From an uncultured Methanosarcinales archaeon (GTDB lineage Archaea; Nanobdellota; Nanobdellia; Woesearchaeales; UBA583): a DNA stretch of 58,414 bases. The number at the start of each line of letters is the position of its first letter. Position 1 is the first letter of the stretch. Below the pieces are notes generated by a model. It had not been told where the DNA came from. It did no database searches and saw only the letters and a program-made list of their open reading frames with translations. Positions 13,452 through 19,941 of this stretch are shown piece by piece. Where the stretch lies: assembly GCA_964562045.1 (NCBI GenBank), contig CAZLRR010000002.1, positions 1-58,414 on the forward strand, written 5' to 3'. The position numbers and the translations under genes are program-made.

Positions 13452-14780
13452 ATGGATAATTTTATTGTAGGATTTTTTTTATCTTTGCTTCTTGGAGCAC
13501 TTCTTGGCGTTCAAAGAGAAGTTAAATTACAAAGAGAAAATAGAAAAGATTTTGCAGGATTTAGAACATTTTCTCTAATTTCATTGCTCGGTTTTGTGAC
13601 AAGTTATATTTCATTAAATTATTTCCAGAATCAGTGGTTTTTTATTGTATTTTTTATTTGTTTTTTTATTTTAATTATTGTTTCTTATGTAATTATTTCT
13701 TTTGTACATAAAAATCTTAAACCACAAATCTCGGGACAAATTAATGCAGTATTTGCACTTTTAATTGGTTTTCTTGTAAGTTTTCATGAATATTATTTTG
13801 CAATTTTTATTGCAATAACAATAGTTACTTTAATGGCTTTAGGAAGAAGGCTGCATTATTTTGCAAGAAAATTAAAAAATGAAGAAATATTTGCAACAAT
13901 AAAATTTGCAATTATATCTTTGATTATACTGCCTCTTTTGCCCAATAAAAACTATTCTCTGTTAGATATTCCCATTATCTCTGAATTTTTTCTAAGACAA
14001 TCATTAATCTCTCAAGAAGTTTTAAGTCAAATCGATGTATTTAATTTTTATAAAATTTGGCTAGTTATTGTTTTAGTTTCAGCAATTAGTTATGTGGGAT
14101 ATATTTTGATTAAATTTTTTGGGAGCGAGAAAGGAACGATTTTAACTGGATTTTTGGGCGGACTTATGAGTTCGACGATTTTAACTATTTCTTTTTCAAG
14201 TGAGAGTAAGAAAAATTATCGTCTTGCAAAAACTTTGGCTTTGGGAGTAATTATTGCATGTTCAACAATGTTTTTTAGAATTATTTTGGAACTGGTAATT
14301 TTAAATGCAATAGTTTATGGGGCAATTTTTGCACTTTTTGTGATGGGAGTTACGGGACTGATTTTTTCTTACTTTTTTCATAAAAAGATTTCAATTCATA
14401 AAATAAAACACGAAAAAGAAGAAGAAATTAGGTCTCCTTTCAACTTTCTTCCAGCATTAAAATTTGCAATTTTTTTTCTTTTTATTCTTTTCATTTCAAA
14501 GCTTCTTCTTATACTGGTTGGAGTTAAAGGATTATTTATTATTGCATTTTTATCAGGAATTACAGATGTTGACGCAATAACTATTTCTCTTGCTCAAATG
14601 GCTGCAACGGGAACAATTTCTTTTGAAGCCGCAGGAATTGGGATTTTTATTGCCGCAGTAGCTAACACACTATTTAAATCGGGGATTGCATTTTATTTTG
14701 GGGGAAAGAGTTTTTTCAAATATATATTTATTAGTTTTTTAATTATTCTTGCAACAGGATTTATAGCTATGTTTATTTAG
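13452..14780 (+). CDS. MgtC/SapB-like N-terminal domain plus DUF4010-type polytopic membrane protein
   Basis: GALLGVQRE near the N-terminus resembles the MgtC signature. There are more than 10 predicted TM helices. Confidence 0.55.
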   Translation: MDNFIVGFFLSLLLGALLGVQREVKLQRENRKDFAGFRTFSLISLLGFVTSYISLNYFQNQWFFIVFFICFFILIIVSYVIISFVHKNLKPQISGQINAVFALLIGFLVSFHEYYFAIFIAITIVTLMALGRRLHYFARKLKNEEIFATIKFAIISLIILPLLPNKNYSLLDIPIISEFFLRQSLISQEVLSQIDVFNFYKIWLVIVLVSAISYVGYILIKFFGSEKGTILTGFLGGLMSSTILTISFSSESKKNYRLAKTLALGVIIACSTMFFRIILELVILNAIVYGAIFALFVMGVTGLIFSYFFHKKISIHKIKHEKEEEIRSPFNFLPALKFAIFFLFILFISKLLLILVGVKGLFIIAFLSGITDVDAITISLAQMAATGTISFEAAGIGIFIAAVANTLFKSGIAFYFGGKSFFKYIFISFLIILATGFIAMFI

Positions 14781-15430
14781 GACAAATATTTATTAAAATG
14801 TTTTATGATGGTCTCCCCCATAAGTTTTTCTTTACATACATCTATGTCCGTTGTAATTTGTTTTTTGTAAATGTGATTTATGTACATTCTTTTTAGAAAC
14901 TCGGAATTTTTAACAATAGGAATTTTATTTAAATAATCTCTAAATATTGAATTTTTATAAGTGAAAGTACATCTTAATTCCCACTTTCCGGACTGAAGAA
15001 CTTTTTTTGAGTTTCCTTCTAAAATTTCAATATCTTTTCCCCCTCTGATACTGAAATCCATTTTAAATTCAAACCACCCATAATCTGAGACCTTTTTTCT
15101 TGCAAACCATAAAATTTCATATTCGAAGGCTTTGCCTCCGGGTTGATTAATTTTTACGAATTTTTGTTCGTACATATTTGGAGTTCTATTATTTTTGCCA
15201 TCAATAAATTCCATGCTTTTTGCTCCCTTGCCGAAATATTTTCCATCTTTTTTATGGGGTCCTATCATATCTTCAAAATTTTTTTCTAAAAGAAGGTTTG
15301 CAAATTCTTTAATAAAGCTCCTTAAATCTATCGCTTTAGTGTATTGGGCAGTTACAGGATAAACATCTTCAATTTTGTGCTCAATGATTTGTGTTTTTTC
15401 TTCTGGTTTAAATAAAAGTTCATCTGCCAT
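14777..15430 (-). CDS. Hypothetical protein
   Basis: A 217-aa ORF with an ATG start. I recognised no motif. Confidence 0.55.
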   Translation of the reverse strand: MADELLFKPEEKTQIIEHKIEDVYPVTAQYTKAIDLRSFIKEFANLLLEKNFEDMIGPHKKDGKYFGKGAKSMEFIDGKNNRTPNMYEQKFVKINQPGGKAFEYEILWFARKKVSDYGWFEFKMDFSIRGGKDIEILEGNSKKVLQSGKWELRCTFTYKNSIFRDYLNKIPIVKNSEFLKRMYINHIYKKQITTDIDVCKEKLMGETIIKHFNKYLS

Positions 15431-15501
15431 ATCTGATAATTTTTATTTTTAAATGTTTTTAAATCTTTTTAATCATTTTTGATGAGTTTTCTCTGCCAAG
15501 A

Positions 15502-15509
15502 TTTATATA
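15502..15509 (+). promoter_or_regulatory. TATA box (tttatata) for the helicase C-terminal fragment gene
   Basis: It lies 21 nt upstream of the ATG at 15531, which is the spacing seen for most genes in this window. Confidence 0.5.
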
Positions 15510-15530
15510 AAACTATTTATTATTATATTT

Positions 15531-18500
15531 ATGGAGAGTTTTCCAATCATTGAGACCAGAAAAATTGAGGATTATGGTGATGATTCCAGTGTAGATTTGG
15601 CAGTGGAGACTATGAAGCAAGGAAAACAAGTTTTGATTTTTAATAATTCTAAGAGAAGTAGCGAGGCAACAGCAGATAAAGTTGCAAAGAAATATGTTGA
15701 AAGAGCAAATAATGAAGAACTTGAGAAGCTTTCTGAACAGATTTTGAAAGTATTACCAACTCCAACAACCCAGTGTAAAAGGTTAGCAAATGCGGTAAAA
15801 AAAGGTGTAGCATTTCATCATAGCGGTTTAGTAGGAAAACAAAGATCTTTAATCGAAAATGCATTCAAGCAAGGAATTTTGAAGGCGATTTCGAGCACCC
15901 CAACACTATGTTTGGCAAAAGGAACTAAGGTTTGGTCAAATAATAAAAAAATTTCTATAGAAAAATTAAAAACAAATCAGGTTTTCGCATTAAAAGATTC
16001 AAGTTTGAATTTAATCAAACCAGAAAAAGTTGAAAATAATGGGTATAGTGATGAATTAATTGAGATTGAAAGTGTTTCGAGTCATAAAATTAAAGCAACA
16101 AAGAACCACAAATTTCTGATTAGAAGGAAAGGGAAGAAATTAATTTTGCAAGCAAACGAAATTAAGAAAACTGATTTGATTGCAACAGTAGGAAAAATTG
16201 AGATTAAAGAAAAAAATTTGATGTTTTCACAGTTTATTTTGGACAATTCTTTTCCTCTTGAAGATAAAGAAATTCCTGCAGAAATATTTTATTTAATTGG
16301 TGCAATGTTGGGTGATGGTTATTCTGGGGCTGAGAAGAAAGGCAACAAAATAAAATATAAGGGAAGTCCTTCGATTGTTGGAGTTGATAATGAAACTTTT
16401 GACAGGGTTCGGTTTTCGTGCAAACTTTTAAGAATTTCTTATAGGAAAACAAAAAATATCTATGGGACTCCCCAGCTAGTATTGGGAAAAAATAATTGGT
16501 TTAGGGAATTTTTAGTTAGGTGTGGTGTTGATGTTAGTGTTAATAAAAACATTTCAGAAGAGTTGAAGTTGGCAAGTAAAGAGAAAATTTCTAACTTATT
16601 AAAAGGGCTTTTTGACACGGATGGTTATGCAGAAAAAAGAGGACAACTCGGATATTCTAGCATTTCTTTAGATTTAATTAAAGATGTTCAAGAACTGTTA
16701 TACAGGTTTGGTATTACATCTAGAATTAGAAAAAGAAAGAAGAAATCAATTAGAATTTCAAATAAAGAATATGATTGTAAAGATTCTTATGAATTAATAA
16801 TTGCTGAAAACAATTCTATGTTAAGCTTTTTTAATAATGTTGGTTTTAATATCAATAGGAAAAAAGAAGTTTTAGATGAAATAATTCATAAAATTCAACA
16901 AAATATTTTGTATAAAGAATGTAATTTTTGTAATTATAAGTTATATTCTGATTTGTTTGGGGGAAGAACAAAAAGTCAAAAAGATTGGGGAAATGCAAAA
17001 CTCTTAATAATAAAAAATTTAGAAAAGTTTGGTCCTTTAACTTCAAAAGATTTAACTAATAAAGTTGGGTTTGAAATTAGAAAGAATAGTTCTAGATTAA
17101 ATCATCACTACGAATTAATTGGAAAAACAAAATTTAGCAAATATGATTGGACTTGGAATTTAAATTCTATTGGGAAAACAATTTCTAAGGAATTAAAAAA
17201 TTCGTCTTATGAAGAAATTTTTGAGAGAACAAATTGTTTAGTTTGTGGAAACAAATTAAACGAAAACATAAGGAATAATTGGAAAAATTCAAATAAGGAT
17301 GGAGATATTTTTTGGGATCAAATTAAATCAATTAAGAAAATTAAAGAAGAAGTTGAAGTTTTTGATGTTGTTTTACCCTCAGATGATTCAAATGATCATT
17401 TGTTTGTTGCAGAAGGATTTATAACGCATAATTCTGCGGGGCTCAACCTTCCAGCATATAAAGTTATTATTCGAGATTATAAAAGGTATTCAAGATTTGG
17501 TTTTGCAGATATTCCCGTCTTGGAGTTTCATCAGATGGCTGGGCGTGCAGGAAGGCCAGGTTTAGAATTTGTTGGGAAAGCTGTTGTTTGCGTAAAAACT
17601 GAAGATGAACTTGCAAGAGTTACGAAAAAATATGTTTTCGGACAGGCCGAAGAAGTTATTTCAAAACTTGCTGTTGAGCCAACTTTGAAAATGTACATGC
17701 TCTCTCTTATTGCAATGGACATAATCAATACAAAACAGGAAATTAAAGACTTTTTCAAAAATACTTTATATGCTCATCAGTACCAAGATCATGAAGCTTT
17801 TAATTTTAATTTATTTAGGATTTTGAACATTTTAAAAGATTATAGATTTATTTCTCAAGAAGACGATTATTTTATGGCAACACCAATTGGAAAGAAAGTC
17901 TCAGAGCTTTATTTAAATCCAGATACGGCAAATTATTTTTATTCTAATCTTGACAAATTTATTAAAAAATTTTCAAATAGTAAAATTGGTAAAAATGACA
18001 TATATTCACTTCTTTATTTTGTTTCAGACACTTTGGAAATGAAACCTTTATTTAGCATTAGGAAAAATGATGAAGAAAGGTTACAGCTAAGGGCAGAAGA
18101 AGTGGCAGATGGTTTGATAGTTGGATTTGATCCTTATGAGATGGATTATAAGCAGTTTTTATCTCTTTTAAAGGTGAGTGATTTGTTTTTGGATTGGATT
18201 AGTGAAAAAAGTGAGGATTATTTGTGTGATTTATATGGCGTAACTCCAGGAGAAATGCAGTTTAAATTTGAAATTGTTGATTGGCTACTTTATGCTCTGG
18301 AGGAAATGGCTTTGATGAAAAAGAGTATTTTTGTTAAGAATTATTTGACGAAATTACGTCAGAGATTCAAATTTGGAGTAAAGGAAGAACTTTTGATGCT
18401 AATTAAATTAAAGGGGGTTGGAAGAGTTAGGGCTAGAAAGCTATATAACGCAGGATTTAAGACTTTAAATGATATCAGGAAGGCAAGTTCAGATGATTTA

Positions 18501-18698
18501 GTTAAAGTTATTTCGTCTGGTCTTGCTTTAAGTTTGAAAAAACAAATTGAAGGGAGTGAGATTGGAGAAAACAAACTTGCTTTGCCAAGAGAACTTCGTG
18601 CAAAAGAAGTAAGCGATGAGGAGATTGAAGTTTTGCTAAATAACGAGAAAGAATTCGAGAAACAAAAGAAAGGTGGAGGATTATTAGATTATTTCTAG
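15531..18698 (+). CDS. Hel308/Ski2-type DNA helicase, C-terminal part only (RecA2, WH, ratchet and HhH domains), interrupted by an intein
   Basis: Motif IV region QVLIFNNSKRS is present. GVAFHHSGL and STPTL|intein|SAGLNLPA represent motif V. Motif VI is QMAGRAGRPG. The C-terminal HhH is LIKLKGVGRVRARKLYNAGF. There is no Walker A or DExH domain. Confidence 0.85.
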   Translation: MESFPIIETRKIEDYGDDSSVDLAVETMKQGKQVLIFNNSKRSSEATADKVAKKYVERANNEELEKLSEQILKVLPTPTTQCKRLANAVKKGVAFHHSGLVGKQRSLIENAFKQGILKAISSTPTLCLAKGTKVWSNNKKISIEKLKTNQVFALKDSSLNLIKPEKVENNGYSDELIEIESVSSHKIKATKNHKFLIRRKGKKLILQANEIKKTDLIATVGKIEIKEKNLMFSQFILDNSFPLEDKEIPAEIFYLIGAMLGDGYSGAEKKGNKIKYKGSPSIVGVDNETFDRVRFSCKLLRISYRKTKNIYGTPQLVLGKNNWFREFLVRCGVDVSVNKNISEELKLASKEKISNLLKGLFDTDGYAEKRGQLGYSSISLDLIKDVQELLYRFGITSRIRKRKKKSIRISNKEYDCKDSYELIIAENNSMLSFFNNVGFNINRKKEVLDEIIHKIQQNILYKECNFCNYKLYSDLFGGRTKSQKDWGNAKLLIIKNLEKFGPLTSKDLTNKVGFEIRKNSSRLNHHYELIGKTKFSKYDWTWNLNSIGKTISKELKNSSYEEIFERTNCLVCGNKLNENIRNNWKNSNKDGDIFWDQIKSIKKIKEEVEVFDVVLPSDDSNDHLFVAEGFITHNSAGLNLPAYKVIIRDYKRYSRFGFADIPVLEFHQMAGRAGRPGLEFVGKAVVCVKTEDELARVTKKYVFGQAEEVISKLAVEPTLKMYMLSLIAMDIINTKQEIKDFFKNTLYAHQYQDHEAFNFNLFRILNILKDYRFISQEDDYFMATPIGKKVSELYLNPDTANYFYSNLDKFIKKFSNSKIGKNDIYSLLYFVSDTLEMKPLFSIRKNDEERLQLRAEEVADGLIVGFDPYEMDYKQFLSLLKVSDLFLDWISEKSEDYLCDLYGVTPGEMQFKFEIVDWLLYALEEMALMKKSIFVKNYLTKLRQRFKFGVKEELLMLIKLKGVGRVRARKLYNAGFKTLNDIRKASSDDLVKVISSGLALSLKKQIEGSEIGENKLALPRELRAKEVSDEEIEVLLNNEKEFEKQKKGGGLLDYF
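15909..17432 (+). mobile_element. Intein (508 aa) with a LAGLIDADG homing-endonuclease domain, inserted in helicase motif V
   Basis: The N-terminus is Cys (CLAKGTKV) and block B is TKNH. The two dodecapeptide motifs are LIGAMLGDGY and LLKGLFDTDGYA. It ends in the C-terminal HN followed by Ser+1. Confidence 0.9.
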
Positions 18699-18774: not shown

Positions 18775-19941
18775 ATGGCCGAATTTGAAGATGCAGCAAG
18801 AGAAAGTAGGCTTGGAGATGATCCTTTGTATAGTATTTCTTTTGAGAATGCTAGACTAGAAGAGGAAAATCGTAACCTGAAAAGAACAGTGCAATTCTAT
18901 CAAACAGAATTAGAAAAATTTAGAACTCCACCTTTTATAGTTTCTGAAATCATTTCAGTTCTTCCAGAAAAACGGGCAATTGTAAAGCTTCCTAACCAGA
19001 GTAATTTTTTAGTTCAAATTTCTGAAAATGTGAAAAAGAAAGTTAGGGCAGGAGACATGGTTTTAAATGAGCAAAAATCGCTTGTAATTATGGATAAAGT
19101 TGAATTGACTAAGAATTTCGCAGTAGAAAATTATTTGATTGTAGATAACAAAATTAAAATGTCTTGGAGCGATATTGGTGGTCTTGGAGAACAAGTTGAA
19201 AAAGTTAAAGAAGTTTTGGAACTTCCACTTAAAAATCCAGGTCTTTTCAAAGAAGTTGGAATCCAGCCTCCAAAAGGTGTACTTTTACACGGACCCCCAG
19301 GTACGGGTAAAACTATGATTGCAAAAGCTTTAGCTAAAGAGACTAAATCAACATTTATCGAATTAGTTGGTTCTGAACTTGTACAAAAATTCATTGGTGA
19401 AGGTGCAAAACTTGTTAAAGATTTATTTGAACTTGCAAGAAAGAAAGCCCCAACTATTATTTTCATTGATGAAATTGATGCAATTGCAGCTAAAAGAATT
19501 GAAACTGGAACTTCTGGCGAGAGAGAAGTACAGAGAACTTTCATGCAGCTTTTAGGAGAAATTGATGGTTTTGATCCGTTATCAGATGTAAAGATTATTG
19601 CAGCTACAAACAGACTTGATATTTTAGATGATGCAATTTTAAGGCCTGGAAGATTAGAGAGACATATTGAAATTTGTGCTCCTAATGCTGAAGGAAGGCT
19701 TGAAATTTTAAAAATTCACACTAAAAGTATGAAACTAGAAAAAGATGTAGATTTGAAGCAAATTTCAGAAATGACTGACAAATTTACTGGTGCTGAATTA
19801 AAAGCTCTAGCGACTGAGGCGGGATATTTCGCTATTCGAAAAAATAAGAAAATTGTAACACACCAAAATTTTGTTGATGCAATTTCTAAAGTAAAAGCAG
19901 AAGAAAAAAACTATGAAATGTTATCTCATAGTTTTAGCTAA
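18775..19941 (+). CDS. pan: Proteasome-activating nucleotidase (AAA+ ATPase)
   Basis: It has an N-terminal coiled coil, Walker A GPPGTGKT, Walker B IIFIDEIDA, and the second region of homology. Confidence 0.92.
   Translation: MAEFEDAARESRLGDDPLYSISFENARLEEENRNLKRTVQFYQTELEKFRTPPFIVSEIISVLPEKRAIVKLPNQSNFLVQISENVKKKVRAGDMVLNEQKSLVIMDKVELTKNFAVENYLIVDNKIKMSWSDIGGLGEQVEKVKEVLELPLKNPGLFKEVGIQPPKGVLLHGPPGTGKTMIAKALAKETKSTFIELVGSELVQKFIGEGAKLVKDLFELARKKAPTIIFIDEIDAIAAKRIETGTSGEREVQRTFMQLLGEIDGFDPLSDVKIIAATNRLDILDDAILRPGRLERHIEICAPNAEGRLEILKIHTKSMKLEKDVDLKQISEMTDKFTGAELKALATEAGYFAIRKNKKIVTHQNFVDAISKVKAEEKNYEMLSHSFS

Follow-up and report, generated by a model that had tools for sequence, protein, structure and literature searches.

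A Hel308 helicase gene naturally split at the start of its second motor lobe in a Woesearchaeota-type order of Nanoarchaeia probably encodes a two-subunit enzyme

Analysis of the 58,414-nucleotide (nt) contig CAZLRR010000002.1, hereafter the window (positions 1 to 58,414, forward strand; assembly GCA_964562045.1, deposited as an uncultured Methanosarcinales archaeon and placed by GTDB in Archaea; Nanobdellota; Nanobdellia; Woesearchaeales; UBA583), revealed an open reading frame (ORF) encoding the C-terminal part of a Hel308 helicase (15531..18698, forward strand, 1055 amino acids (aa) plus stop). From the sequences we consider it very probable that this ORF and a 218-aa ORF on another contig of the same genome (C1) are the two genes of a naturally split, functional Hel308 of the Hjm/Ski2-like superfamily 2 (SF2). 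Most likely, the motor would be built from two proteins and would not represent a broken gene.

The window ORF starts shortly before helicase motif IV, as stated in the original prediction, and its product is a precursor comprising the rest of the RecA2 lobe, an intein, the winged-helix (WH), ratchet and helix-hairpin-helix (HhH) domains and a tail resembling a PCNA-interacting peptide (PIP). Residues 21-127 and 635-998 aligned to residues 227-331 and 331-689 of Hjm from P. furiosus. The N-extein (aa 1-126, 15531..15908) provides a new N-terminus, the strand of motif IV (KQVLIF), motif IVa (AFHHSG) and, with STPTL, the first half of motif V. Motif V is interrupted by a 508-aa intein (15909..17432; TPTL/C...HN/SAGLNLP), recognized by Pfam and by its motifs, with a LAGLIDADG domain and two CxxC pairs. 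The C-extein (aa 635-1055, 17433..18695) completes motif V with its second half and then carries motif VI (QMAGRAGRP), the WH domain, the ratchet (domain 4), the HhH domain (domain 5) and a tail ending in GGGLLDYF. All RecA2 motifs (IV, IVa, V, and VI) are thereby carried by the window ORF, motif V becoming contiguous after splicing, and removal of the intein leaves the predicted product of 547 aa. Pfam detected HTH_61 (25.5 bits, cut-off 24.3), Helicase_dom4_arc (81 bits, cut-off 27), HHH_5 (32.6 bits, cut-off 27), Intein_splicing and LAGLIDADG_3, while Helicase_C left only a sub-threshold trace.

No N-terminal DEAD or ResIII domain was found in the window ORF by Pfam. A tblastn search of the whole window with the genome's own RecA1 half gave nothing but noise (best E = 3.2); motifs Q to III are therefore not encoded in the window, in line with what had been proposed. 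The RecA1 lobe is indeed absent, as predicted, but the loss is wider than RecA1 alone, as the first beta-hairpin after the RPVxL motif is missing too. A TATA-box-like promoter element (tttatata, 15502..15509, forward strand) lies 21 nt before the ATG of the C-half gene, which suggests a leaderless or near-leaderless mRNA, and the upstream neighbor (14777..15430) is on the opposite strand; both had been noted in the original prediction.

The window's own assembly, a 73-contig metagenome-assembled genome (MAG) that is 92% complete, was searched with the Pfam DEAD domain. A 218-aa ORF in the middle of a 78-kb contig (G000:C1:38147-38800, reverse strand) matched with 114 bits, so that the N-terminal fragment of about 200 aa, which the original prediction had suggested looking for elsewhere in the genome, does exist. 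This ORF contains the motifs LRPSQ (Q), PTASGKT (I), Ia, DEIH (II) and LSAT (III) as well as WRPVEL, and its stop codon follows 14 residues past RPVEL (...QHYVLHGEELRRYK). Residues 5-209 of this N-half aligned to residues 7-208 of P. furiosus Hjm (2zj2) with E = 7e-48. On the NCBIfam model PRK02362 (739 positions), the N-half covered positions 7-216 and the spliced C-half positions 221-711. When concatenated, the two halves were colinear with four unsplit orthologs, with nothing missing or duplicated and with the break in a loop, in support of the predicted split gene. Neither half alone passes the curated models, as PRK02362 scored the N-half with 236 bits and the C-half with 429 bits (cut-off 887) and NF040935 (helicase_Hel308) scored them with 192 and 319 bits (cut-off 1200). 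Scores below the cut-off in combination with two ORFs are those of an orthologous, but architecturally divergent, two-chain Hel308.

The genome contains a single copy of the ratchet domain (PF21280). Three of its other ORFs with a DEAD domain were identified by NCBIfam as Hef, the R subunit of a type I restriction enzyme, and XPD; the remaining ones were judged by eye to be two DEAD-box proteins and one SNF2 protein. A second, intact Hel308 paralog is excluded by the single ratchet domain and the identities of these ORFs.

The comparison with relatives included all 20 members of the genus and a wider sample of 201 genomes of the order from 161 genera, in which presence was scored at E <= 1e-35. 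All 20 members of the genus have the N-half as a free-standing frame of about 200-330 aa, and so do genomes from about 19 further families of the order. In the wider sample the N-half was present in 191/201 genomes and 157/161 genera (208-335 aa among the matches listed), and the C-half likewise in 191/201 genomes, in frames of about 480-600 aa among the matches listed; longer C-half frames, those of the window's genome (1070 aa) and of G345 (1046 aa), bear an intein. Both halves occurred together in 184/201 genomes, while 3 genomes lacked both, compared to 0.5 expected by chance (Fisher p = 0.009). The sister orders of the same class encode Hel308 in a single frame of 687-757 aa. The split was observed in independent assemblies, including the single-contig genomes G007, G012, G035, G095 and G243, and the closest relatives of both halves were the same genus members, for instance G011 with 76 and 63% identity.

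The position of the break is conserved as well. In an alignment with the unsplit ortholog G137 (alignment A1), the end of the N-half fell on residues 212-216 of G137 in 27 of 28 sequences, which represent at least 12 families, and the C-halves started at about residues 215-222. As the ends of the N-halves and the starts of the C-halves coincide, all families sampled from the order share one break point. The N-half stop position (...RYK and stop) is kept in most genus members. For G145 and G068, from other orders, a split at this site was suspected, and both turned out to be contig-end truncations.

The halves retain the features expected of expressed and selected genes. Motifs I, II and III were intact in 28/28 N-halves; among the C-halves, motif V was intact in 16/18, motif VI (QMxGRAGR) in 17/18 and AFHHxG in 18/18, and across the order most frames of either half were without internal stops. 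Within the genus, the ratio of nonsynonymous to synonymous substitution rates (dN/dS) was 0.08-0.17 between the closest pairs of N-halves (median 0.17) and 0.12-0.23 between C-halves (median 0.20), although these values are rough, since dS was near saturation (0.8-2). In each of the 10 genus members examined, the ATG of the C-half is preceded at a distance of about 21-25 nt by a box of the type (a/g)tttata(t/a)a, by its sequence a putative expression signal of the C-half's own; a TATA-like box also precedes most N-halves. On one contig the halves were 1.7 kb (G009), 2.1 kb (G014), 10 kb (G007) or, in the others, 21-424 kb apart and often on opposite strands, and therefore do not form one transcription unit.

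The place of the cut in the fold was determined on an AlphaFold2 model of G137, the nearest unsplit ortholog (699 aa, 64-row alignment), which had a mean predicted local distance difference test score (pLDDT) of 92.9 and matched the Hjm/Hel308 crystal structures over the full length with template modeling (TM) scores of 0.86-0.92. In this model the last RecA1 strand (residues 188-191) is followed by a beta-hairpin (198-205 and 208-211, RPVKL-YNGIYT / EIDF), the loop in which the N-halves end (212-217), a helix (227-237) and the motif IV strand (242-245). Single-sequence prediction of the 218-aa N-half alone reached a pLDDT of only 40 and was uninformative. Based on the model of the ortholog, the N-subunit consists of RecA1 and the hairpin after RPVEL (RPVELQHYVLHGEELRRY). 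The published domain boundaries of Hel308 place RPVxL already in domain 2; in that case the hairpin of the N-half would be a built-in tether, which would complete the RecA2 lobe of the other chain.

Hydrolysis of ATP by SF2 enzymes requires motifs I and II from RecA1 together with the arginines of motif VI from RecA2. As all ATPase motifs are retained across the two genes, the halves are expected to meet in one complex. In the proposed pathway, each half-gene would be transcribed from its own promoter and, in the window's genome only, the C-precursor would first excise the motif-V intein by cis protein splicing. The N and C polypeptides would then associate non-covalently, with the C-terminal hairpin of the N-subunit and the native interfaces between RecA1, RecA2, the WH domain and the ratchet rebuilding the Hel308 ring. 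One chain would bind ATP with its motifs I and II, and the other would sense it through the arginines of motif VI. Once assembled, the enzyme would work like an ordinary Hel308, unwinding DNA in the 3'-5' direction at stalled forks, and the C-subunit would keep its PIP-like C-terminal tail for PCNA.

The tail itself (...KQKKGGGLLDYF, 18660-18695) is conserved. Within the genus it has the form xxSLxDYF, in other families of the order the C-halves of alignment A1 end in KGQ(I/M)(S/N)LxD(Y/F), and a clear version is missing from most unsplit orthologs of other orders. This PIP-like sequence suggests that the C-half has retained PCNA binding.

Several observations weigh against a functional two-gene Hel308 or limit what can be said about its history. 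At the threshold used, 7 genomes lacked only the N-half and 7 only the C-half, and these single-half genomes include G113 and G152, both rated 100% complete; gaps in the MAGs could account for such cases. The near-saturated dS blunts the estimates of selection, docking of the hairpin into RecA2 depends on published domain boundaries, and transcription, translation, splicing, association and activity of the halves are all predictions from sequence. Furthermore, in a maximum-likelihood tree of concatenated N+C and full-length orthologs, the split sequences did not form a clean clade, but fell together with their nearest unsplit relatives into one poorly resolved clade with an unresolved backbone. 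No well-supported branch of this tree forced more than one origin of the fission. The most parsimonious history is a single fission, in a surface loop just past the hairpin, that took place at the root of this Woesearchaeota-type order of Nanoarchaeia or close to it and has been kept since, a reading that is based on the taxonomic distribution and that the gene tree does not contradict.

The single-half genomes, together with the unlinked and separately promoted genes, would also fit a divergence of the halves into independent functions, so that a Hel308 motor is no longer reconstituted. The C-half could for example have become an ATP-independent DNA-binding, annealing or PCNA-associated factor, while the RecA1 half serves another partner. 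However, motifs I-III of the 28 N-halves and motif VI of 17 of the 18 C-halves are useful only together by the SF2 mechanism, the N-subunit keeps the hairpin after RPVxL and has its end at one and the same residue throughout the order, and the halves are both co-present and, above chance, co-lost. Such a divergence is thus improbable. The original prediction had left room for a decayed gene, and a Hel308 pseudogene truncated of its 5' part would explain why the window ORF has no ATP-binding domain and why neither half reaches a curated Hel308 cut-off. Nevertheless, the genome does encode this part, intact, at another locus, and the arrangement recurs in about 95% of the 201 genomes, mostly stop-free, with intact motifs, a conserved promoter and signs of purifying selection (dN/dS about 0.1-0.2, with the caveat on dS given above), which makes decay very unlikely.

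It is just as unlikely that the halves are rejoined covalently, by protein trans-splicing through a split intein or by joining at the RNA level. There is precedent in Nanoarchaeota, namely trans-spliced tRNA halves and a PolB with a split intein, and the gene discussed here does carry an intein. Yet this intein is contiguous and lies in motif V, about 120 residues from the gene break, and the other 19 genus members are split without any intein. At the junction of the N- and C-half genes no split-intein fragments were found: Hel308 sequence reaches up to the break on either side, apart from some 1-20 extra, non-homologous residues at most, too few to hold intein halves of about 100 and about 35 aa, and the two chains should therefore stay separate. 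An artefact of assembly or binning, either a mis-join at 15431-15530, where the original prediction had allowed for an error hiding upstream coding sequence, or a foreign contig with the N-half, might be suspected in a MAG of 73 contigs. Both genes are, however, situated well within long contigs (78 kb for the N-half, 58 kb for the C-half), the same layout, with a free-standing C-half and a TATA box at an unchanged distance, recurs in assemblies made independently, among them single-contig genomes, and both halves are closest to the same genus members, so that we attach next to no probability to an artefact.

A second, independent site of Hel308 fission, after motif VI, seems to exist in other orders of the class. 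In G139 (C4), a 385-aa ORF with RecA1 and RecA2 (L056 1954-3111, reverse strand) ends right after motif VI (...YHQMTGRAGRP and stop), and a separate 354-aa ORF with the WH, ratchet and HhH domains (L058 1492-2556, forward strand), about 25 kb away, starts with MTEKYGEAISIAK. The same pattern on separate short contigs was observed in G169 (C64/C62) and G047 (C105/C12), which represent two more families and are candidate cases; G127, of the genus of G169, has an unsplit Hel308. In G124 (C7:9676-10635), from another order, the full-length Hel308 frame contains one in-frame TAG, which could reflect a pseudogene, a sequencing error or recoding.

Beyond being tolerated genome erosion, the fission might have made Hel308 a motor of two components that can be regulated, although we regard this as a speculative and rather unlikely extension of the two-subunit helicase. 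The RecA1 subunit of about 220 aa would then be a detachable ATPase module, the level of which sets the helicase activity, with the hairpin as the sole tether. Before the motor half joins, the C-subunit (RecA2, WH, ratchet, HhH and PIP-like tail) might already sit alone on DNA or PCNA and serve as a clamp or annealing factor that needs no ATP. Fission of Hel308 at the second site in at least three other families of Nanoarchaeia would in this case point to a general advantage of a modular Hel308 in these symbionts.

The intein of the window ORF (C127 ... HN634, followed by S635) shows Cys1, block B (TKNH), LIGAMLGDG, GLFDTDG, the terminal HN and a Ser at position +1, and by these motifs is a canonical LAGLIDADG intein, predicted to splice in cis. 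Within the genus it is restricted to the window's genome (1 of 20 members). A homologous intein with the same extras is present at the same site in G345 (C34), from another family; the two inteins are 47% identical and the exteins 44.5%. The CxxC pairs (CNFC and CLVC) are located in an extra region after the LAGLIDADG core. In other orders, the long frames of G131 (1246 aa) and G081 (1233 aa) are probably unsplit Hel308 genes with inteins.

The surroundings of the halves retain traces of a common locus. In G009 (C51:6500-12000) GatE is followed by Hel308-N, an AMP-phosphorylase-like gene, Hel308-C and PAN. In G014 (C1:315800-321500) a gene similar to AMP phosphorylase or thymidine phosphorylase likewise lies between the N- and C-halves, with flanks that differ from those of G009. 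In both genomes the halves share the strand and the phosphorylase-like gene is reversed. The outer neighbors seen in G009 have stayed with the separated halves of the window's genome, GatE ahead of the N-half on C1 and PAN (18775-19941) behind the C-half, and these retained flanks indicate that a compact N-x-C locus was pulled apart within the genus. Fission by insertion of the phosphorylase gene was considered; as the halves are at least 21 kb apart in other families, the compact order cannot be shown to be ancestral for the whole order. A free-standing Woesearchaeota-type Hel308 N-half with 52% identity was also found on CAYOHL010000008.1, titled 'uncultured Methanosarcinales archaeon', a taxonomic label that is probably wrong.

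The motors of SF2 helicases are normally one chain with the ATP site between two RecA lobes. An order-wide cut at the start of the second lobe would mean that an SF2 motor can be built in trans, and the split Hel308 might serve as a ready system to study communication between the lobes in the Hel308/HELQ/PolQ family. In the window's organism the mature helicase would need cis protein splicing and then hetero-association, if the two-chain model is true. Because neither half reaches a curated Hel308 threshold, automatic annotation may miss both, and Hel308 could seem absent or broken in comparative surveys. The split looks like a clean derived character, i.e., a lineage marker, of this order of Nanoarchaeia and, taken together with the independent fissions at the second site, would show that gene splitting in DPANN archaea is by no means confined to the thermophilic Nanoarchaeales.

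The original prediction had compared the gene with the split genes of Nanoarchaeum. This comparison is apt, but Hel308 itself is not among the split genes of Nanoarchaeum equitans and Nst1 in the published list, which names reverse gyrase (NEQ318-434), a 'large helicase-related protein' (NEQ003-409), GatE, RpoB and others (Podar et al., 2013, PMC3655853, Table 1) and gives 'DNA polymerase I' (NEQ068-528) as split. The likeness is that, in a reduced DPANN genome, an enzyme of information processing or repair is encoded by separate genes at two distant loci, with a split site shared by relatives. In both systems the sharing of the same split site by related lineages argues for functional two-piece proteins. 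A difference is that the split described here belongs to a mesophilic Woesearchaeota-type order and not to Nanoarchaeales, and that it is conserved far more widely, over about 160 sampled genera. Split reverse gyrase is cut between the helicase module and another module, whereas the cut in Hel308 is inside the helicase motor.

The halves of N. equitans PolB are joined by a naturally split intein. PolB, too, is a case of a DPANN archaeon in which a gene of replication or repair is split and an intein is involved, but the intein of the window ORF is contiguous, lies off the gene break and cannot ligate the halves. An example of a motif-V intein in the Hel308 family is the helicase intein of Methanocaldococcus jannaschii. 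Like the inteins of this family, the one described here is of the LAGLIDADG type, sits in a conserved motif of a Ski2-like helicase and is sporadic in its distribution, and its extra region with two CxxC pairs would set it apart.

In full-text literature searches, as far as the texts were accessible, no description of a split Hel308 was found. The split genes given in a review of DPANN archaea are reverse gyrase, tRNA synthetases and Dph1/2 only (PMC6349945). A survey of the Ski2 family removed 'partial' sequences (PMC10946056), a step that could have hidden split Hel308 genes. The split Hel308 therefore appears to be unpublished in the searchable literature, and would represent a novel two-gene form of a known helicase family. 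Compared with the archaeal Hel308/Hjm enzymes of known structure (2ZJ2/2ZJ5/2ZJ8 from P. furiosus, 2P6R/2P6U from A. fulgidus and 2VA8 from S. solfataricus), the motifs Q-VI, the five domains and their order are the same and colinear. While those enzymes are single chains of about 700 aa, Hel308 is encoded here by two unlinked genes cut about 14 residues past RPVEL, the C-terminal piece carries, in the window's genome, an intein in motif V, and the ATPase cleft would form between two polypeptides.

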